DNA from: a virus
Taxonomy: Duplodnaviria; Caudoviricetes
DNA: 36,052 nt
Virus record (IMG/VR): IMGVR_UViG_3300020599_000015
Span: 1 to 36,052 of that record
Reading direction: 5' to 3' (one strand)
The stretch's first letter is position 1; the number at the start of each line of letters is the position of its first letter. The notes under the pieces are model-generated. The model was not told the DNA's origin and did no database searches. It saw only the letters and a list, made by a program, of their open reading frames with translations. This document shows, piece after piece, positions 2,984 through 35,676 of this stretch. A program made the position numbers and the translations under genes.

Positions 2984-3278
2984 CTGTTGCGCCCAGCCAG
3001 ATCGTCAGCGCCTCGTCGGGGGCGCTTTCGAATATCTCGACGACAACTGGCCCGGTTCGTCCATTGCCTGTCATAATGCCGTGCAGGGCTTCTCGCTCTG
3101 CCGTATTCAGATTCCGCCATTTCTGGATGCCGTAGAGCCCGAACAGAATGCCTCTCGGGGCATGGGCCTGCTTGCGGCCGACCGAAAACCCGCAATCCTC
3201 CAGCAGTGCAACGGCACGGCTCTCGGCAACGAAATCACCGGCGTCGGAGAAGGTGAGGCGGATTGCCGAAATCGGCAT
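2766..3278 (-). CDS. Conserved phage hypothetical protein, first gene of the PL operon; C-terminus probably read-through into the moron
   Basis: GFSVG...APRGILFG..IQKWRNL..ER.ALHG.MTG.GR.GPV motif; GGAG RBS. Confidence 0.6.
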   Translation of the reverse strand: MPISAIRLTFSDAGDFVAESRAVALLEDCGFSVGRKQAHAPRGILFGLYGIQKWRNLNTAEREALHGIMTGNGRTGPVVVEIFESAPDEALTIWLGATVRSVADFSSLPPRQRQLFLADAHPLPGWKFQLLSEWLKAIERRSFEWPISEDRARQLGVPSQVFRTWRCRHV

Positions 3279-3309
3279 GGGTGAAACTCCATCGCGGGAA
3301 TGCGATGGG

Positions 3310-3366
3310 ATATGAAAATGCACGCAAATGCGTTCATGTCAAGGAAATGAACGAATATTCGTTTAT
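3310..3366 (-). promoter_or_regulatory. PL promoter with two operators (OL)
   Basis: Minus strand TTGACA(3342-3337)-N16-CATTTT; imperfect palindromes ATGCACGCAAATGCGTTCAT (3318-3337) and ATGAACGAATATTCGTTTAT (3347-3366). Confidence 0.75.
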
Positions 3367-3460
3367 CCGCTTTGCCGCAGGGGCTTCCGCCGCCATCTGC
3401 CTGTCTAGACTCGGCCACTTCACTCTGCTTGGCTTTTTCAGGGCATGGCGGGAGGCTGGC

Positions 3461-3931
3461 GTGAGCTGGAAGCGATACGGGGAGGCGGGCTCAATGCCTC
3501 CGGGGAATTGGGTGAAGGCAACGGCAGTTGAGGAGGTTTACGGCTTAAAATATCGACAGGCTAATGTGCGTGCATTTTGCACCGCGGTTGCTATGGCTGA
3601 ACGAAAGGGGTTGCATTATGGCTTGGCCCTGGCGCCACAGCCTGACAATCCCGATGACCCTTCTGCCATTGCGATCCTGGGACAGGCATTCGAGAAGCGG
3701 TGGTTTCGCTCTGAGCGATTGCGTGAGTGGCACATAGGCTATGTGCGACGACAATTGGCGAAAGAGATTTATGAGGAGTTTCTCTCGAAAAGCATTCCCA
3801 TAGCAAGCCAGCTTCGGAATATCTATGAAAGCGGAAGATATATCGAAATCAACTATTTCGTCCTCGCCCCTCCCGGCAACAGCTTCAGTAGTCGCGTCAG
3901 GCAAGGGCGAACCAAGCGAAGGGAAGAATAA
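3461..3931 (+). CDS. HIRAN-domain protein (immunity-region moron)
   Basis: GTG after GGAGG; V.GL.YR...L.PQPDNPDDPSAIAI...HIGYVRRQLA matches HIRAN motifs. Confidence 0.75.
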   Translation: MSWKRYGEAGSMPPGNWVKATAVEEVYGLKYRQANVRAFCTAVAMAERKGLHYGLALAPQPDNPDDPSAIAILGQAFEKRWFRSERLREWHIGYVRRQLAKEIYEEFLSKSIPIASQLRNIYESGRYIEINYFVLAPPGNSFSSRVRQGRTKRREE

Positions 3932-4015: not shown

Positions 4016-4378
4016 TTATCCGTCTGTGGTCCCGTCTGCCGCTTCATCGGCGCTTGGCGGCCTTAGAGCGGGCTCGGTATCTGCTTCGGAGCGAAGGTAG
4101 TCTATTAACTTTTGACGAGTCTCCGGCTTCATCTGGGATGCCAAACGTAGCAACTCCTCAAAATCAGCAGTCATAGGGGATCCGGTGATGATGTAGGTGG
4201 GGCTGACTCTGAGTGTATTCAGCAGCTTTATGAGTTTTTCGGCAGTCGGCCCGCGGCTGTTTGGTGCAATTAGCTGGTTGACATAATTTGGACCAAGTCC
4301 CGCATCCAGGCTGATAGCCCTGAGGGACCGGCCGTCGTTTTGTATGGCTTCGATAAGCCGCTCACGCCACTTTTCCAT
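4016..4378 (-). CDS. CI-like XRE repressor without an S24 peptidase domain
   Basis: MEKWRERLIEAI..GRSLRAISLDAGLGPNYVNQLI...PT.EKLIKL HTH; divergent from cro. Confidence 0.85.
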   Translation of the reverse strand: MEKWRERLIEAIQNDGRSLRAISLDAGLGPNYVNQLIAPNSRGPTAEKLIKLLNTLRVSPTYIITGSPMTADFEELLRLASQMKPETRQKLIDYLRSEADTEPALRPPSADEAADGTTDG

Positions 4379-4396
4379 GGTCAATGAACTAGCACG

Positions 4397-4463
4397 ACGA
4401 ACGCATCTGCGTGTAAACGAAGTTGCGGGTGCTTGACGTAACCGCAAATGCGTGCATTTTAAT
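4397..4463 (+). promoter_or_regulatory. OR operators (three) and PR promoter
   Basis: ACGCA-tc-TGCGT (4401-4412), ACGAA-gt-TGCGG (4417-4428), CCGCA-aa-TGCGT (4442-4453); TTGACG(4433)-N16-CATTTT. Confidence 0.75.
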
Positions 4464-4467
4464 TTGC

Positions 4468-4698
4468 ATGTGCAATCTCCTTTCAGAAATCGAGCGGTTT
4501 CTTTGTGAGACCGGAATGGGCGAATATCGGTTCGGCCTCCTTGCTGCGAAGAATGGGCGCCTCATTGAGCGAATGCGGGCTTCCGGCAGGAATGGCAGGC
4601 CGGGACGGGTATGGCCGGAGACGGAGGATAAGATTCGGCGCTTCATGGCCGAGGAGAGGGAGCGCCGATCCTTGGTAGTAAAGGAGGCAGCCGAATGA
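4468..4698 (+). CDS. Cro-like repressor
   Basis: LLSEIERFLCETGMGEYRFGLLAAKNGRLIERMR...T.DKIRRFM, a typical alphaproteobacterial prophage Cro. Confidence 0.85.
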   Translation: MCNLLSEIERFLCETGMGEYRFGLLAAKNGRLIERMRASGRNGRPGRVWPETEDKIRRFMAEERERRSLVVKEAAE

Positions 4699-4893
4699 AT
4701 TCGCCAGCCTTCGACCACGCTATTGCAGATCACGGCCTTACCGCTGTGCGCCGGATGAGCGCCGCCGGGGTTCCGATCCTGCCGCACCCACCAGTTCTTG
4801 TCCGTTGCTGTATACAGAGTGCAGCGGACGTTTCCGTGCCGGGCGAGGGTGTTCCCTCCCGCCCATCGTCCGGCACGGCTCCCGATTTCCTGA

Positions 4894-4971
4894 CGCAGGG
4901 TAGCGCAGCAGCGGAAGCGCGCGCGGCTCATAACCGCGAGGTCGCCGGTTCGACTCCGGCCCCTGCAACCA
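4894..4971 (+). tRNA. tRNA-Met(CAT), initiator-like but atypical
   Basis: Full cloverleaf: acceptor CGCAGGG/CCCTGCA with C1xA72, D stem GCGC/GCGC, anticodon stem CGCGG/CCGCG with loop CTCATAA, T arm GCCGG-TTCGACT-CCGGC, encoded CCA. Confidence 0.92.
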
Positions 4972-5198
4972 ATTCCGTAGCGAAAGCCTCCGAGGACAAC
5001 GGTCGGATCAGCGCCACGATGGGCGGCCCGATGGCGGGAGAGGTGAGTAGGGATAGCGATGCGGCTGATCGCCAGCGGCCCTCGCTTTCCGGCTTTACTG
5101 GCGACGATGACGGACGGGATGTTGAAGCCGCTGGTGGAGCAGCGTCCGTCATCACCAATTCCCCATCGGCCTTGACCGGGGCCGAGACCGCGCAGGCT

Positions 5199-5450
5199 AT
5201 GCCCCACCGCCTTCCCGAGCCTGCCGGCGCAGTCACCTTCTCCGACGCCACGATGTTCATCCTCAGTCTGATCGCTGCCCATGAGGGCAGGCCGGCCGGT
5301 GACATCGTGGCTGAGCTTGTTGCCGCCGCCGGTGAAGCCATCGGCCTTTCCCCCTTGCTGACGCATCCCGCGAGCGAGATCGGCGACCTTGCCGGTCTGC
5401 CGAACTACGCGCGGCGCGCCGCCAACCGCTATCGGAGTGGTGTGCCATGA
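5199..5450 (+). CDS. Hypothetical protein (probable real part of ORF 4695-5450)
   Basis: Protein-like only after ATG 5199 (VTFSDATMFILSLIAAHEGRPAGDIVAELV); the upstream part overlaps the tRNA and hairpins. Confidence 0.45.
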   Translation: MPHRLPEPAGAVTFSDATMFILSLIAAHEGRPAGDIVAELVAAAGEAIGLSPLLTHPASEIGDLAGLPNYARRAANRYRSGVP

Positions 5451-5575
5451 GTGCATTTGCCTGCGGGCCTCCGTGAGGAAGTAACGCCCGCACACTGAAC
5501 AATCTGAACCGGTCCCTCCATGGGATTTTTCGGCGGTTTGTCCCGCCGCAGGATTTTTGTTGCCGCGAGACAGCC

Positions 5576-6049
5576 ATGACGCCAGCGCAATTGCAGCTTC
5601 TCAAGCATGCCCAGAACGAAATCATCAGCCTGTGCGGCGGCCTCGATGCCGTGGCTGCGCGCGTCAACTATGGCCGCAGTACGGTCGGCCGCTGGTCTGA
5701 TGTCGGCCATCCAGCGCTGATGCCCTATCCCGCCATCGTGACGCTGGAGGCGGTCGAAGGCGTGCCGCCGGTGATGACTGCCGCCATGGCGGCGATAGCG
5801 GGCGGACGGTTCGTTTCGGACAGTTCCGGGGCGGCCGGCAAGTGCATCATGAGCGCGTTTGCAGAGACCTTCGTGGCTTCCGGCGAGCTTACCGGCGCAT
5901 TCGCCGCCGCCATATCTGACGGCAAGCTCACCCCGAATGAGATTTCCAGCCTCGATCAGCTGCTCGCGGATCTGATCCGCAAAATGACTGCCGGTCGCAC
6001 TTCGCTGGCCGAGGCGCGCGCCGCCGGCGGGCTCAAGGTGGCGTCGTAA
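5576..6049 (+). CDS. CII-like phage regulatory protein
   Basis: CGGLDAVAARVNYGRSTVGRW...MP...I..LE...P.MT; DGKLTPNE; position downstream of cro. Confidence 0.75.
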   Translation: MTPAQLQLLKHAQNEIISLCGGLDAVAARVNYGRSTVGRWSDVGHPALMPYPAIVTLEAVEGVPPVMTAAMAAIAGGRFVSDSSGAAGKCIMSAFAETFVASGELTGAFAAAISDGKLTPNEISSLDQLLADLIRKMTAGRTSLAEARAAGGLKVAS

Positions 6050-6303: not shown

Positions 6304-6623
6304 TGGCTGCCGCCGCCATCACTGTTTCCCTGCGCGTGCCGCCGAAGGTCTATCAGCGCCTGCACGAGTTCGCGAAGGCGCGCGGATACACCGCTACGGC
6401 CTATGCCCATCTGCTGTTCGAGGCGGCATTTGCCGCGCGCGTGGGCCAGGAGCGCGGTGACCCGATAACCGACGCCGAGCTTGATGAGCAGGTTCGGCTG
6501 GTTTTCGCCTGCGCGGGGCAGGGCGACACCAGTGCGATTTCCAAAGCGACCGGCCTGCCTGAACCGCGTGTGATGCGGATTCTCGATGCACTTCGCGAGC
6601 GGAAGCGGGGTTTTCGCAGATGA
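6303..6623 (+). CDS. Ribbon-helix-helix-like DNA-binding protein
   Basis: ITVSLRVPPKVYQRLHEFAKARGYT; TGATG coupling. Confidence 0.65.
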   Translation: MAAAAITVSLRVPPKVYQRLHEFAKARGYTATAYAHLLFEAAFAARVGQERGDPITDAELDEQVRLVFACAGQGDTSAISKATGLPEPRVMRILDALRERKRGFRR

Positions 6624-7891
6624 CCGAGCTCCTACCTCATCCGCTGGCCGAGTTGTTTCCGATGCTGCCCGAACAAGAGGTTCGGCAGCTTGCCGATGAC
6701 ATCGTGACCTTCGGGCAGCGTGTGCCGATCGTGTTGCTTGACGGCAAGATACTTGATGGGCGCAACCGCTATGCCGCATGCCGGTTCGCGAATGTCGAGC
6801 CCGTCACGGCTGAATATGACGGTGACGATCCGCTAAATTTCGTCCTGTCGCACAACCTGCATCGCCGCCACCTGACCGAAAGCCAGAGGGCTCTGGTCGC
6901 GGCAAAGATCGTCGATTGGGAAAACGGTCTGAACCAGCATACCGCAGGGCCTGCAAATTTGCAGACCCGCGAAGCGGCACGAAAGCTTTCGATATCCGAG
7001 CGCGCCGTTGCCGCGGCTAAACGCATCCATGAGCATGGCGCCGCCGAACTGGTCGAGGCCATCCGCGACGGGCGCGTATCCGTGCATGCCGGCGAAGCGC
7101 TTTCGGCGCTTGCCGTGGAGGAACAACGCAAGGTGCTGGAGCGCGAGGAGCGCGATGTCATCCAGCGCGCCAAGGAAATCCGCGCGGAGAAACAGAAGCT
7201 TCGCCATACGGTGCGGCTGGCGCATCTCGACATGGTTGCCGAAGTCGGCGCCCCTGCCGCGCCGGGGGAGGTGGCCAAGCTCTATCCGGTGATCTATGCG
7301 GACCCGCCTTGGCGGTTTGCCGTCCGCTCCGAAACCACGGGCCGGGAAAAGAGCGCCGAGAACCATTATCCGACGATGCCGACCGAGGAGATTTGCGGCC
7401 TGCTGGCCAATCTCGGCGGCGTTGCGGCGCGCGATGCCGTGCTGTTCCTGTGGGCAACCAACCCGATGCTGCTCGACGGCCTGCGCGTACTTCAGGCGTG
7501 GGGCTTCACCTATGTGCACCACTGGGTGTGGGACAAGGAAGTTGCCGGCACCGGCTATTGGGGCAGGGACCGGCACGAACTGTTGCTGGTCGGCCGGCGT
7601 GGAGATGTGCCGGCGCCACTGCCGGGCACCCAGCCCGAAACCGTCTACCGCGAGCGCAAGGGCCGGCATTCGGCCAAGCCCGATTTCTTCGCCGAGCAGA
7701 TCGAACGGCTTTATCCGGGCATTTCCAAGATCGAACTGTTCTGCCGCTCACCGCGTCCCGGCTGGGATGTGTGGGGGTTCGAGGCGGGTGATGACGGTGG
7801 CAAACCTGAGGAGCCGGCCAGCCCGCCACGCAAGTCGGGCAAGCGCGAGCCTCGCCAGAAATCAGATCAACAACCGGAGGCATCTCCATGA
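6620..7891 (+). CDS. ParB-like N-terminal domain fused to MT-A70 family N6-adenine methyltransferase
   Basis: HPLAELFP...PIVLLDGKILDGRNRY (ParB-like); IYADPPW, HSAKP, IELFCR (MT-A70). Confidence 0.9.
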   Translation: MTELLPHPLAELFPMLPEQEVRQLADDIVTFGQRVPIVLLDGKILDGRNRYAACRFANVEPVTAEYDGDDPLNFVLSHNLHRRHLTESQRALVAAKIVDWENGLNQHTAGPANLQTREAARKLSISERAVAAAKRIHEHGAAELVEAIRDGRVSVHAGEALSALAVEEQRKVLEREERDVIQRAKEIRAEKQKLRHTVRLAHLDMVAEVGAPAAPGEVAKLYPVIYADPPWRFAVRSETTGREKSAENHYPTMPTEEICGLLANLGGVAARDAVLFLWATNPMLLDGLRVLQAWGFTYVHHWVWDKEVAGTGYWGRDRHELLLVGRRGDVPAPLPGTQPETVYRERKGRHSAKPDFFAEQIERLYPGISKIELFCRSPRPGWDVWGFEAGDDGGKPEEPASPPRKSGKREPRQKSDQQPEASP

Positions 7892-9301: not shown

Positions 9302-9594
9302 CGTCACATTCCTTCGATCCGGATCCGATTGCTCGAGCTCTCGCGCCTACCGTACGCGAGATGCTGCTCGACGAGGTGCGCCGGCAGGCTGCGGCGGAAC
9401 GGCGGGTGCATGCCGAGGAGATCGAGGCCGAGATCATGGCGGCGAGCCGCGAGGTTGCGCGCGCCGCCGACAGGCTGGCGCAGGCACGCTTTGCCGGCGC
9501 GGCCGAGGGAAATGCACATCGGGCACTGGTGAAGGCCGCCATGGCGCTTGGTCAGACCATGCGCAAGCACGGCCGCATGCCGAAGGGGGAATGA
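9298..9594 (+). CDS. Hypothetical helical phage protein
   Basis: Coupled overlaps at both ends. Confidence 0.65.
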   Translation: MTSHSFDPDPIARALAPTVREMLLDEVRRQAAAERRVHAEEIEAEIMAASREVARAADRLAQARFAGAAEGNAHRALVKAAMALGQTMRKHGRMPKGE

Positions 9595-11735
9595 TGGTCG
9601 ACCTGTTCGGTAACGCATTGCCAGATCATCGTCCACGGTGGCGGTGTCTGCCTTGCCCCGGCTCATACCCCGCCGCCAAGGTTCCATTGCCGGTGCCACC
9701 GCCATCGAGGACGGGCAGGCGTCGCGTTCGCGTAGTCGACAGCTTTGCGGGCGGCGGTGGCGCCTCGAACGGCATTCGACTGGCATTGCAGCAGCTTTAT
9801 GCGATGGAGCTATTGCCGACCGGGCATCCGCTCGACGTCGATTTCGCGGTCAATCACGACGACGCCGCACTTTGCATGCACGCGGCGAACCATCCGGATA
9901 CGATCCATCTGCCGGCCAATGTGTGGCAGGTTTCCATGCGCGAGACGCTTGGCGACGATCTGTTCGGGCTGCTCTGGCTGTCGCCGGACTGTCGTGATCA
10001 CTCATCCGCCAAGGGCGGGCCGATCACCTCGCGAGCCGTGCGCGACCTCGCCTGGGTGGCGATCAAATGGCTGAAGGAACTGCCGGACTGGCAGCGGCCG
10101 TGGATCATCTGCCTCGAAAATGTCAGCGCGTTCGCAAAGTGGTCGCCGCTGATCGAGCGACCGGACGGCAAGGGGTTCATGCGCGATCCGGAGCGGATCG
10201 GCTGGACCTTCCACCAGTTCGTGCATGAGCTATCGCGCTTCGGCTATTCCATAGGCTGGAAAGAGATCGTTGCCTGCGAGCATGGTGATCCGACCATCCG
10301 TAAGCGCCTGAAACTGGTGGCGCGGCGCGATGGGCAGGCAGTGGTGTGGCCGGAACCGACGCATGGCGACCCGAAGTCGGATGCAGTTCTCAACGGTGAG
10401 CTCGAGCCATGGCCGGTCGCCGCCGACATCATAGACTGGTCGCTCGACTGCCCGTCGATCTTCATGACGAAGGAAGAGGGGCGGGAATACACGAGGCGGA
10501 CAGGCAAGCGTGTCATCCGGCCGTTGGCCGCAAAGACCGATGCGCGGCTCGCCTATGGCGTGAAGCGGCATGTGATCGACGCGGGCGACGATGCCTTCGT
10601 CGTAACCTGCAACCATGCCGGCGATGGTTTTCGCGGGCAGGCGATGGGCGAGCCGTTCGCAACGGTGACGCGCGCACGCGATGCGCACGGGCTCGTCCTT
10701 CCTCACGTTGCGGTGTTTCGCGGCGATAGCACCGGCAAATCGGTCGGGGAGCCGCTGCCGACGCCAACAGCGAACAGCTTCATCAAGCGACCGGGCGGTG
10801 CTACGCCCATCGGGGTCTGCGAAGCTTCGGCGGTGCCTTTCATCAGCCGGGGCCAGCATGGCGGGGGCAATCGTCCGGCGACAGAACCATTGCACACCGT
10901 GGCTGCATCGGATGGCGACCAGAACCAGATAGTCGTTCCCTATCTCGTCCCGCGCTATGGCGAGCGCGAGGGGCAGGAGCCGCGCAGCGTCGGCATAGAC
11001 CGGCCTGCACCGACGCCCGTGCCGGATGGCAACCAGGGCAGCCTGGCGGCCGTCTACCTCGCGCAGCACAATGGTGGACCGCGCGCGCCTATCGGGCGGC
11101 CGGTCGGTGAACCTCTATCCACTGCGACCGTCGAGGGATCGCAGCAGCAGATCGTCGCCGCCTCGATGCTGTCGCTCAAAGGCAGCGAGCGCCGCGACGG
11201 ATCGTGCAGGGATGCGCATCCTGCTGTCTGTGCCAGTGGCCAGCATTCGGCCGTGGTCACGTTGCCGCTGATGACCGCGTACTATGGCAGCGGCGACGGC
11301 TTCCGGGTCGACCAACCGTCATGGGCAGCTACGACCCATGATCGTTTCGGTCTGACAATCGCCGATGCTGCTTGTCCGCCGCTGACCGACGCACAATGGG
11401 CACGCGCCCGTCAGGTTGCCCAGTTCCTGCGGCGGCATGGTTGCTGGGACGGCGGCGAGATCGTCGCGCTTTCGATTCGCGGGACGGTGTTAGTCATTGT
11501 CGATATCGGCATGCGCATGCTGACGCCGCGTGAGCTGGCGCGGGCGCAAGGTTTTCCGGACACCTACATCCTCAATCCGATCTTCAACGGAAAACCGCTG
11601 GCGGAAACCAATCAGCGGCACAAGATCGGGAATTCGGTCTGCGAAAAGCCGGCCGCCGCCGTCATCGTCGCAAATTATCGCCCGCCGCTGGAATGGGGCG
11701 AAGCATGCGATCCGTTCATGGAGGCTGCTGAGTAA
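9591..11735 (+). CDS. C5 cytosine DNA methyltransferase with a large repetitive insert
   Basis: DSFAGGGG (motif I), SPDC (IV), ENV (VI), R.R (VIII), RMLTPRELARAQGFP, KIGNSV (X). Confidence 0.92.
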   Translation: MMVDLFGNALPDHRPRWRCLPCPGSYPAAKVPLPVPPPSRTGRRRVRVVDSFAGGGGASNGIRLALQQLYAMELLPTGHPLDVDFAVNHDDAALCMHAANHPDTIHLPANVWQVSMRETLGDDLFGLLWLSPDCRDHSSAKGGPITSRAVRDLAWVAIKWLKELPDWQRPWIICLENVSAFAKWSPLIERPDGKGFMRDPERIGWTFHQFVHELSRFGYSIGWKEIVACEHGDPTIRKRLKLVARRDGQAVVWPEPTHGDPKSDAVLNGELEPWPVAADIIDWSLDCPSIFMTKEEGREYTRRTGKRVIRPLAAKTDARLAYGVKRHVIDAGDDAFVVTCNHAGDGFRGQAMGEPFATVTRARDAHGLVLPHVAVFRGDSTGKSVGEPLPTPTANSFIKRPGGATPIGVCEASAVPFISRGQHGGGNRPATEPLHTVAASDGDQNQIVVPYLVPRYGEREGQEPRSVGIDRPAPTPVPDGNQGSLAAVYLAQHNGGPRAPIGRPVGEPLSTATVEGSQQQIVAASMLSLKGSERRDGSCRDAHPAVCASGQHSAVVTLPLMTAYYGSGDGFRVDQPSWAATTHDRFGLTIADAACPPLTDAQWARARQVAQFLRRHGCWDGGEIVALSIRGTVLVIVDIGMRMLTPRELARAQGFPDTYILNPIFNGKPLAETNQRHKIGNSVCEKPAAAVIVANYRPPLEWGEACDPFMEAAE

Positions 11736-34220: not shown

Positions 34221-34286
34221 GATTCGTCATGTGGCTGACTCGCCTGCCAATCTTTGCTATCTGCACCTTGGCGGGCGGGCTTAAAA

Positions 34287-35363
34287 TTGAAGTATCAATC
34301 TTTCGATCAAAAAGCACGGAATCAGCGATGTGCACGGCTCAGATGGCGGCGTACCGTCCTGAGGCGAGGGAGGAAGCACGCCGCTAGTGTTGAAATCAGA
34401 ATAAGCCCCCCAGCAATATTAAGTTTTTCGAAGAACTTCAGAGAGACTATCGCATTTTTGGACCGTTTTCGCTCGGAGGCCCTTCATGAGAACGGTAAGA
34501 ATAAGAGAATTTATGTAGACTTAGTCCCGGTAAAGGAGCTTTCGGTACCGGTCGCGATAGTTCTTTCAGCAGAGTTTCACCGATGGTCTTTGATAAGGAA
34601 GACGCGCCTTAGGCCGCGCAACTCTCATCTCTGGTCTCCGGAAGTTAGAAGCCTACTGGATGATTTGGGAGTTTTTGATCTTCTTCAAATCGGAGCCGTT
34701 CGCGGACGTGACACCTGGACTGATACCGTAACGCTTACTCAGTTGGAATCTGGTGAAAGTTTTGACGGTGAGAAAATCAACGAGTTGCAAGTTCACTTTG
34801 CTCAATCGCTAGCTGGCTTTACAAGCCGCCCACAGGTTTTTGAAGGGCTGATGGAGGCTGCTGAAAACGCGATAGCTCACGCTTATCCAAGTGAATATGA
34901 ACCTGATCACCCATTTGCCGGGCATCGTTGGTGGGGCGCGAGTTGCCTTGACATGGCAGCAGGTCGCCTACGGTTCTTCATTTTCGATCAAGGCGCTGGC
35001 ATCCCGTTCACTCTTCCGAAAGGTCCACTATGGGAACGTATTCTCTCAGCTGTATCTGCAGGTACAGGAGGCCTCATTTCCGATGATGCGCACATGCTGA
35101 AAGCAGCCTTTGAAGTCGGGCGCACCAGCACAGGGCTTGAACATCGCGGACTGGGGTTGAAGCGCATGGCGGATGTTGTCCGCGGCTCTGAGACTGGGTA
35201 CCTGCGGATCATCAGTGGGCGTGCCGAAATCACGCATCATCATAATGACAGGATTGTCACGAACGGGTTGCCGTCACATATTGGTGGCACACTTATAGAG
35301 TGGAGCCTGCCGTCGGACGTTTTTACGGATAGCATCGAGGATGAAGGCCATGCGAACTATTAA
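34287..35363 (+). CDS. GHKL/HATPase-fold ATP-binding protein (start uncertain)
   Basis: N box EAAENAIAHAY, G1 FDQGAGIP, G2 TS....RGLGL, GTLIEW; no HisKA segment; N-terminal STAS-like region (IYVDL..V.ELSV). Confidence 0.8.
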   Translation: MKYQSFDQKARNQRCARLRWRRTVLRRGRKHAASVEIRISPPAILSFSKNFRETIAFLDRFRSEALHENGKNKRIYVDLVPVKELSVPVAIVLSAEFHRWSLIRKTRLRPRNSHLWSPEVRSLLDDLGVFDLLQIGAVRGRDTWTDTVTLTQLESGESFDGEKINELQVHFAQSLAGFTSRPQVFEGLMEAAENAIAHAYPSEYEPDHPFAGHRWWGASCLDMAAGRLRFFIFDQGAGIPFTLPKGPLWERILSAVSAGTGGLISDDAHMLKAAFEVGRTSTGLEHRGLGLKRMADVVRGSETGYLRIISGRAEITHHHNDRIVTNGLPSHIGGTLIEWSLPSDVFTDSIEDEGHANY

Positions 35364-35676
35364 TGTTGCAGACCTCTTCCCCTTTCCTGGAGGACGTTAC
35401 CGTAGACATGGAAAGGGAAGCGGTCAGGAGTTCCGAGAGGATTACCTTATGCCGGTTCTCAAAACCCATGACCAAGTGCGTATCGTCTTGGACGGCGCAA
35501 GTGGCTACCCCCCTTCTTTCCTGGAGGAGGCATTTGGTGGCTTGATACGAGAAGGGTTCTCGGCTGAAGAGGTTCGAAAAAGCTTACATATTGCTGCTGG
35601 TCCGGCTTTTGAGGCGTATGTACGTATGATCTGGGACTACGTAGATAAAGCGAACCGGGCCCAAGTTGGACACTGA
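35350..35676 (+). CDS. STAS-like DUF4325 protein
   Basis: GGRY...G..SGQEFRE..L...V..DG..GY..SFLEEAFGGL. Confidence 0.85.
   Translation: MRTINVADLFPFPGGRYRRHGKGSGQEFREDYLMPVLKTHDQVRIVLDGASGYPPSFLEEAFGGLIREGFSAEEVRKSLHIAAGPAFEAYVRMIWDYVDKANRAQVGH

Follow-up and report, generated by a model that had tools for sequence, protein, structure and literature searches.

The stretch of DNA analysed here (the window, 36,052 nucleotides) is the entire 36-kb record of a soil phage, temperate and tailed as judged from gene content by profile matches. Within the variable linker of one of its early genes, which is coupled to cro, sits an intact tRNA(CAU) gene of initiator type. The base pairs of this tRNA evolve by compensatory change in related phages, the tRNA is nested in a coding frame whose flanking domain is under protein-level selection, and the host initiator sequence from which it departs is invariant. 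By sequence comparison, the same DNA likely doubles as tRNA gene and protein-coding sequence in the window and in dozens of its relatives. The notable feature is this in-frame nesting at cro-cII across a phage family, more than the odd base pairs of the tRNA, which alone would be of modest interest.

The early region and its tRNA gene

The gene set of the phage comprises an excisionase, a cI-like repressor, a cro-position open reading frame (ORF), a CII-like activator, a GcrA-like protein, a ParB-methyltransferase, and replication, head, tail and lysis genes. Since the nearest named relatives of the phage methyltransferase sit in Rhizobiales genomes, and related loci occur in Mesorhizobium, Rhizobium, Pseudochrobactrum and Brucella/Ochrobactrum among others, we infer a host within the Rhizobiales. 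The cI-like helix-turn-helix (HTH) repressor (4016-4447, minus strand; profile matches) is divergent from a 76-aa ORF at 4468-4698 (+), which matched no Pfam or PHROG family and is therefore labelled cro by position only. A Shine-Dalgarno-like AAGGAGG (4681-4687, +) lies 7 nt 5′ of the ATG at 4695, which overlaps the upstream stop and opens the 251-aa tRNA-bearing ORF (4695-5450, +), a protein with a disordered middle and a folded C-terminus. Within this ORF, a G+C-rich hairpin (4834-4878, +) ends 15 nt 5′ of the tRNA (4894-4971, +), and a conserved, weakly ribbon-helix-helix (RHH)-like C-terminal domain (aa 178-251) occupies 5226-5447 (+). A 9-codon ORF (5447-5476, +) is coupled to the stop of the tRNA-bearing ORF, followed by the CII-like activator (5576-6049, +; phrog_101, E 4e-17). 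No sigma-70 promoter was found in a scan of 4300-5700.

Several other features of the region were recorded. The G+C hairpin has counterparts in L002 (2760-2805) and in L006 (about 893-946), a relative without the tRNA in which paired changes preserve the stem after cro, and a hairpin with z < -2 lies directly 5′ of the tRNA in 19/33 syntenic loci; it is possible that this hairpin within the coding frame is an attenuator or processing signal. A short coupled ORF with a CGPP end recurs before cII in relatives of the phage, and in L079, L300 and L406 the tRNA-bearing ORF itself terminates in the CGPP motif, which may act as a signal in DNA or RNA instead of as a peptide. Left of cI lie two rightward accessory ORFs, one with a weak HIRAN-domain match (3263-3931, +; E 0.004) and one with no family match (2510-2983, +). 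The early operon holds two DNA methyltransferase genes (6620-7891 and 9594-11735), one fused to a ParB-like domain, and accessory genes for a phrog_3364 protein and a DUF4325 STAS-like protein lie past the lysis cluster (34254-35676).

ARAGORN called a single tRNA-Met(CAT) at 4894-4971, which matches Rfam RF00005 with 58.4 bits (E 2.8e-10). Its minimum-free-energy fold is the cloverleaf, with an energy no better than that of shuffles (z -0.89). By script numbering, the acceptor end carries C1xA72, G2-C71, C3-G70, A4-U69 (4897 and 4964), A73 and an encoded CCA (4969-4971). The D stem has C11-G24 (4904 and 4919) next to G12-C23, closed by a 10-nt D loop with an apparent 3-nt duplication, while the anticodon arm, with the anticodon at 4929-4931, comprises C27-G43, G28-C42, C29-G41 (4924 and 4936), G30-C40, G31-C39 and C32/A38. 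Contigs of run X1 span the tRNA with zero differing letters, although X1 may be the source run and the match is thus not independent support. The 78-mer is identical in one other phage (L426/L429), and the closest DNA relative (X5) is about 90% alike over 4400-5653.

The CAU anticodon, A73 and cloverleaf are those of a bacterial initiator tRNA-fMet. In covariance models built from 10 fMet, 11 Ile2-type and 10 elongator-Met host genes, labelled by the criteria of PMC1635315, the tRNA scored 80.5 bits as host fMet, 61.2 as Ile2 and 57.5 as elongator Met. It has the 1:72 mismatch with G2-C71 and C3-G70 that marks initiators (PMC5389676), the initiator pair G12-C23 (PMC1635315), and G30-C40, which is essential in E. 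coli. It lacks the initiator R11:Y24, having C11-G24 where 10/10 distinct host initiators have A-U, and C29-G41 interrupts the run of three G-C pairs 29-41, 30-40 and 31-39. Host initiators carry A29-U41 in 40/40 genes and A11-U24 in 40/40 (37 genomes with such genes, 41 Rhizobiales genomes; states read from a table, with the 10 distinct genes checked by script), so that a Rhizobiales host itself does without the three G-C pairs. Alphaproteobacterial initiators of this kind have been described, and the same report states that C29-G41 and U29-A41 mutants each sustain E. coli deprived of its own initiator genes and that G30 is the key base among the three pairs (PMC5389676). None of the traits of the Rhizobiales-type elongator tRNA-Met (paired 1:72, U12-A23, A31-U39, A32) is present. 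Of the tRNA-Ile2 traits, C4-G69 and C5-G68 (PMC12514573) are replaced by A4-U69 and G5-C68, and U12-A23, G3-C70 and a paired 1:72 are absent; C29-G41 is present, and the two odd pairs are both Ile2 states, since C11-G24 and C29-G41 occur in 11/11 host Ile2-type genes.

These features lead us to class the tRNA as one that would work like an initiator, rather than as a canonical member of that class, and it probably does function in initiation. R11:Y24 and G4-C69 are reported to be minor helpers of formylation (PMC7949028, PMC9976931); without these two it may be a poor initiator. It differs from the nearest host initiator copy at 15/61 compared positions. An attachment-site remnant was ruled out by these differences from host fMet, together with the wholeness of the gene and its place between cro and cII.

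A sequence-only reading of this DNA had described a hybrid tRNA-Met between cro and cII and proposed a variant initiator. The initiator and formylation features that it listed (C1xA72, G2-C71, C3-G70 and A73) are all present, as is C11-G24 in place of a purine11-pyrimidine24 pair, where host initiators have A11-U24. The variant-initiator proposal is supported by the best score falling on the host fMet model, by the retention of C1xA72, C3-G70, G12-C23 and G30-C40, and by covariation in relatives. Identical pairs in the host initiator or uncompensated drift in homologs had been named as findings that would count against it; the host has neither C11-G24 nor C29-G41, and stem changes in relatives are compensatory, which also bears out its argument, from paired stems and an encoded CCA, against decay. 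Its remark that C29-G41 breaks three G-C pairs holds against the E. coli rule but not as an oddity, because the host has A29-U41. As a recombined tract, the hybrid fails for the D arm, where the Ile2-like 11:24 adjoins an fMet-like 12:23, and a recombinant fMet/Ile2 tract there was ruled out; it could still apply to the anticodon arm. The location between cro and cII was correct, although the tRNA is not intergenic but in frame within ORF 4695-5450. This in-ORF location, A4-U69 in place of host G4-C69, the 10-nt D loop and the Ile2-type states of the odd pairs had gone unmentioned.

Covariation and in-frame nesting in related phages

Among 137 loci gathered via the neighbouring methyltransferase, some of them too short to reach the tRNA site, 24 have an upstream same-strand CAU tRNA. 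The window, Mesorhizobium phage vB_MseS-P1 (L002) and 16 tRNAs from the methyltransferase loci make up 18 distinct syntenic tRNAs, all of which have C3-G70, G30-C40, A72 and A73, with an unpaired 1:72, G12-C23 and A4-U69 each found in 17/18. In the 17 that were aligned, pairing was 98.2%, with two-sided change at 10/20 pairs; none of 500 shuffles reached as high a covariation, a test that kinship inflates, and pairing in slid controls was 37-52%. Loci retrieved through tRNA patterns, in which the patterns fixed some positions, brought the set to 26 distinct syntenic tRNAs. In these, 29:41 is U-A in 15, G-C in 8, C-G in 3 and the host A-U in none; 11:24 is A-U in 13, G-C in 10 and C-G in 3, so that R11:Y24 is kept in 23/26; and 32/38 is U/C in 20 and C/A in 6.

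A metagenome scan for the pair combination of the window tRNA returned 13 stretches, the window's own record among them. Four matching loci (L426 and L429, which are one phage, L432 and L427) show synteny or have the host gene in common, and the window variant is found in three phage lineages besides its own. The tRNA of L426, equal to L429, is identical to that of the window, yet its cro and GcrA share only 67% and 42% aa identity with those of the window; L432 has an A49-U65 swap and L427 a G27-C43 swap, both compensatory, and P0002/P0003 imply a U50-A64 swap, as read from protein. The combination of C11-G24 and C29-G41 was also seen in unrelated viral contigs, in 7/19 distinct initiator-like C29-G41 tRNAs; an association of the two pairs across phages (7/19 vs 14/82, p 0.07) was not established. 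These comparisons indicate that the window variant is a selected subclade, neither decayed nor unique, and that the tRNA is very probably under selection. Two further variants were noted: an acceptor double mismatch, G1xA72 with U2xC71, recurs in distinct sequences (L022 4050-4124, L078 3785-3859 and L179 4116-4190), and a tRNA(CAU) with an initiator-like acceptor in L407 (1498-1575, minus strand; G330) has C29-G41 and C30-G40, an Ile2-like arm without G30.

The whole tRNA is in frame inside ORF 4695-5450, with the anticodon CAT read as His. Among the 33 homologs of this ORF, three (P0004-P0006) show, in place of the tRNA codons, a clean gap of 29 columns that preserves the frame. The tRNA is likewise absent from L006, a relative with a 90% CII, found via CII, in which a 207-aa frame is intact, and in L007 (2730-2805, equal to L158) a decayed tRNA before cII has a broken anticodon arm within a surrounding ORF whose frame is kept. 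The C-terminal domain was present in 26 loci (19 distinct), four of which contain the tRNA; in 26/26 the frame extends back 120-555 nt to an ATG overlapping the upstream stop, and the ORF end falls on the next start. The dN/dS of this domain is 0.14-0.41 (10 pairs), compared with about 0.4-0.5 for the N-terminus (2 comparisons) and about 1 or above for the linker (4). In a structure model of the 251-aa protein, high confidence was restricted to residues about 181-250, and confidence over the linker was low. Most top matches in a fold search with the domain were RHH proteins, the best of them weak (Z 4.4, rmsd 4.6 over 57 residues); its Atlas scores were below the bars, and it had no Pfam match.

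The tRNA-bearing frame is stop-free across the tRNA in 32/32 syntenic loci. This open body alone means little, because the anticodon frame is the sole stop-free frame in host fMet too and is open in 76/94 other initiator-like phage tRNAs. Upstream of the tRNA, the 32 syntenic loci have a median of 101 open codons in the anticodon frame vs 20.5 and 37.5 in the other frames, and the 94 other phage tRNAs have a median of 19.5 in the anticodon frame; at least 50 such codons were found in 27/32 vs 27/94 (p 5e-8, the loci not being independent). The tRNA length is divisible by three in 27/32 vs 51/94, and in 4/5 copies of 76 nt a coupled ATG in the same frame lies 18-24 nt upstream. Across 33 loci, the ORF starts at an ATGA overlap in 16, most others being the Cro-like gene itself, and ends on the next start in 26; 9/11 scanned ORFs that read through from a Cro-like gene match HTH, P22_Cro or YdaS families (E 2e-13 to 0.008). 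The joint chance of the in-frame junctions over 16 clusters (log10 -12.6) counts related linkers as if they were independent and serves only as a rough indication. Taken together, the comparisons make it very probable that ORF 4695-5450 is translated. A coding-frame constraint as the cause of the odd pairs was ruled out, since no stop arises from the host or family states at 4:69, 11:24, 29:41 and 32/38. As separate observations, P0033 has an unrelated N-terminus with a window-type tRNA peptide near its end and may be a further host gene, and in vB_MseS-P1 (PP232116.1) the tRNA (L002 2988-3062) lies inside annotated gp13, with no tRNA listed there.

Possible roles of the nested tRNA

We favour, with moderate confidence, a nested spare initiator tRNA that would be cut from the early transcript and charged with methionine, and whose departures from the host likely help it to escape toxins directed at tRNA-fMet. 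The tRNA would be transcribed from pR as part of the early rightward transcript. Maturation of tRNAs proceeds through RNase P and 3′ trimming, which would release the mature tRNA from this transcript; it would then likely be charged, formylated and used as a spare start tRNA. Because the tRNA lies inside the coding frame, each transcript would give either the full-length protein or the tRNA; after excision the 5′ message would have no stop, and the cII part would be separated from cro.

Toxin escape as the reason for the departures is a more tentative proposal. The cut by VapC falls at 38/39 and depends on the stem. VapC toxins cleave tRNA-fMet in the anticodon stem-loop, reading sequence and structure (PMC7180214, PMC4705866), and AtaT requires G4G5G6:C67C68C69, a tract in which C-G flips, and not A-U, were tested (PMC7595197). 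A4-U69 of the window tRNA replaces the host G4-C69 within this tract. As a whole, the family deviates from the host at 29:41 and 4:69, and mostly at 32/38, with the initiator determinants retained. Finding host A29-U41 in 0/26 syntenic tRNAs is consistent with toxin evasion, although shared descent weakens the point, since the 29:41 states fall in few lineages of a poorly resolved tRNA tree and do not amount to 26 events; the contrast with 11/94 other phage tRNAs was not significant (p 0.12). Against escape, 1/10 non-G4 initiator-like genes in 401 Rhizobiaceae genomes has A29-U41 (G204), the window tRNA keeps the host loop C32/A38, where 20/26 relatives have U32/C38, and phages facing VapC-LT2 are reported generally to avoid encoding tRNA-fMet (PMC10264068). 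Five hosts of such prophages have 4-24 PIN-domain matches each, whose targeting of tRNA-fMet is putative. Escape from anticodon nucleases such as VapC, or a decoy for them, had been suggested in the sequence-only reading. Escape is plausible. A decoy would absorb tRNA-fMet nucleases and spare the host initiator. It would fit the retained host anticodon loop and G30-C40/G31-C39, but a decoy should copy its target, and the tRNA is unlike the host at 29:41 and 4:69, as are most relatives also at 32/38; we thus judge a decoy very unlikely.

The same reading had raised a processing element in the PR transcript, which gains weight from the location of the tRNA within the coding frame. If regulation were the main role, the nested tRNA would be a processing site that ribosome cover keeps from folding and that thinning of ribosomes opens to an RNase P cut, the split cro-cII message changing the output of Cro, the RHH protein and CII. 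The constant position within a coupled ORF chain between cro and cII speaks for this, and the same model has been proposed for selB/selC (PMC8124441). It would nevertheless not need the CAU, 1:72 mismatch, G30-C40 and A73 that are near-invariant here, and the same gene chain is retained in relatives without the tRNA, which leaves regulation unlikely as the main role. A translation-sensing lysis-lysogeny switch is likewise improbable. Ribosomes relayed from cro would traverse the initiator tRNA and hold it unfolded until host toxins depleted start tRNA and initiation fell; it would then fold and be excised, so that one step would both free an initiator resistant to toxins and cut the cro-cII message.

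The remaining explanations concern the identity or dispensability of the tRNA. A dual-purpose Met tRNA, weakly formylated owing to C11-G24 and A4-U69 and shared between initiation and elongation, would supply extra Met-tRNA in lytic growth; two minor formylation elements are indeed lost, and formylation-compromised initiators are reported to do both jobs in E. coli (PMC7949028). The major determinant, C1xA72 with G2-C71/C3-G70, is however intact, and since 23/26 relatives keep R11:Y24, a dual role could apply to one subclade only; we regard it as distinctly unlikely. Neutral cargo, acquired once, tolerated in a floppy linker and now drifting, would account for the dispensability suggested by the patchy distribution (24/137 methyltransferase loci), the absence from L006 and the decayed copy in L007/L158. 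Given compensatory stem changes, with covariation disfavouring drift, copies that are identical or differ by paired changes amid divergent flanks, and invariant initiator determinants, it is very unlikely. An AUA-reading tRNA-Ile2, with C34 turned to lysidine by TilS, would share C11-G24, C29-G41 and the 28-42 arm with host Ile2-type tRNAs (both pairs 11/11), and of the phage copies the window subclade scores highest on the Ile2 model (56-65.5 vs 43-52 bits; seven phage copies). It lacks, however, C4-G69, C5-G68, G3-C70, U12-A23 and G1-C72; host TilS, at 471-480 aa, is long enough for the acceptor-reading type I, its C-terminal domain not being found by Pfam; and AUA codons occur at 5.7 per 1000 in the phage, compared with 5.0 per 1000 for host loci. 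The chance of this identity is very small.

Comparison with known systems

In this family of temperate Rhizobiales phages, genes of at least two kinds hold a nested initiator-type tRNA, and loci with and without it form natural pairs, which makes the competition between translation and excision of a nested tRNA directly testable. Naturally occurring initiator variants (29:41 U-A, G-C and C-G; 11:24 A-U, G-C and C-G) also form a series for tests of evasion of tRNA-fMet toxins. Annotation that bars tRNA/CDS overlap loses one of the two, and the vB_MseS-P1 record lists the CDS and misses the tRNA.

With the alphaproteobacterial initiator tRNA-fMet, the window tRNA shares CAU, C1xA72, G2-C71, C3-G70, G12-C23, G30-C40, G31-C39 and A73, and like it (the au/GC/GC variant described in PMC5389676) does not have three G-C pairs; C11-G24, C29-G41, A4-U69, the 10-nt D loop and the nesting in an ORF set it apart. 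Its anticodon arm is unlike that of the host isoacceptor, as in anticodon-nuclease-evading phage tRNAs (van den Berg 2023, PMC10264068). Those described there are mostly mycobacteriophage elongators, whereas this is an initiator in a temperate phage, and any matching toxin is putative.

A search of the literature on phage initiator tRNAs and toxins, Rhizobium prophage tRNA-fMet and nested phage tRNAs, covering mainly listings of papers available without subscription, yielded no initiator tRNA nested at cro, although overlaps may be recorded in the prophage tables of PMC12429752. Lone Met/fMet(CAU) tRNA genes are on record, as annotations, in Sinorhizobium phiLM21-like prophages (PMC12429752, PMC10460002), likewise temperate Rhizobiales phages. 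The phiLM21 copy has U29-A41 and, unlike that of the window, follows NusG/HNH genes, with an anticodon frame that is not open.

The closest parallel is selC (tRNA-Sec) in selB of Alphaproteobacteria, presented as the first bacterial report of a nested tRNA and as a prediction only (Mukai 2021, PMC8124441). In both systems the whole tRNA lies in frame on the coding strand, its length is mostly a multiple of three, the ORF stop overlaps the next start, and the arrangement, known by prediction, is conserved but non-essential. Here, a conserved same-strand open frame (32/32 syntenic loci; 33 loci) and selection on the ORF, together with its coupling to neighbours, were both found. The window differs from selB/selC in being a phage with an initiator tRNA at the cro-cII switch, and in its at least two types of carrier gene, one for a Cro-like HTH protein and one for an RHH-like protein. 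It differs, too, in the position of the tRNA, which is in mid-linker and not only in a C-terminal tail, and in a carrier protein that does not handle this tRNA.
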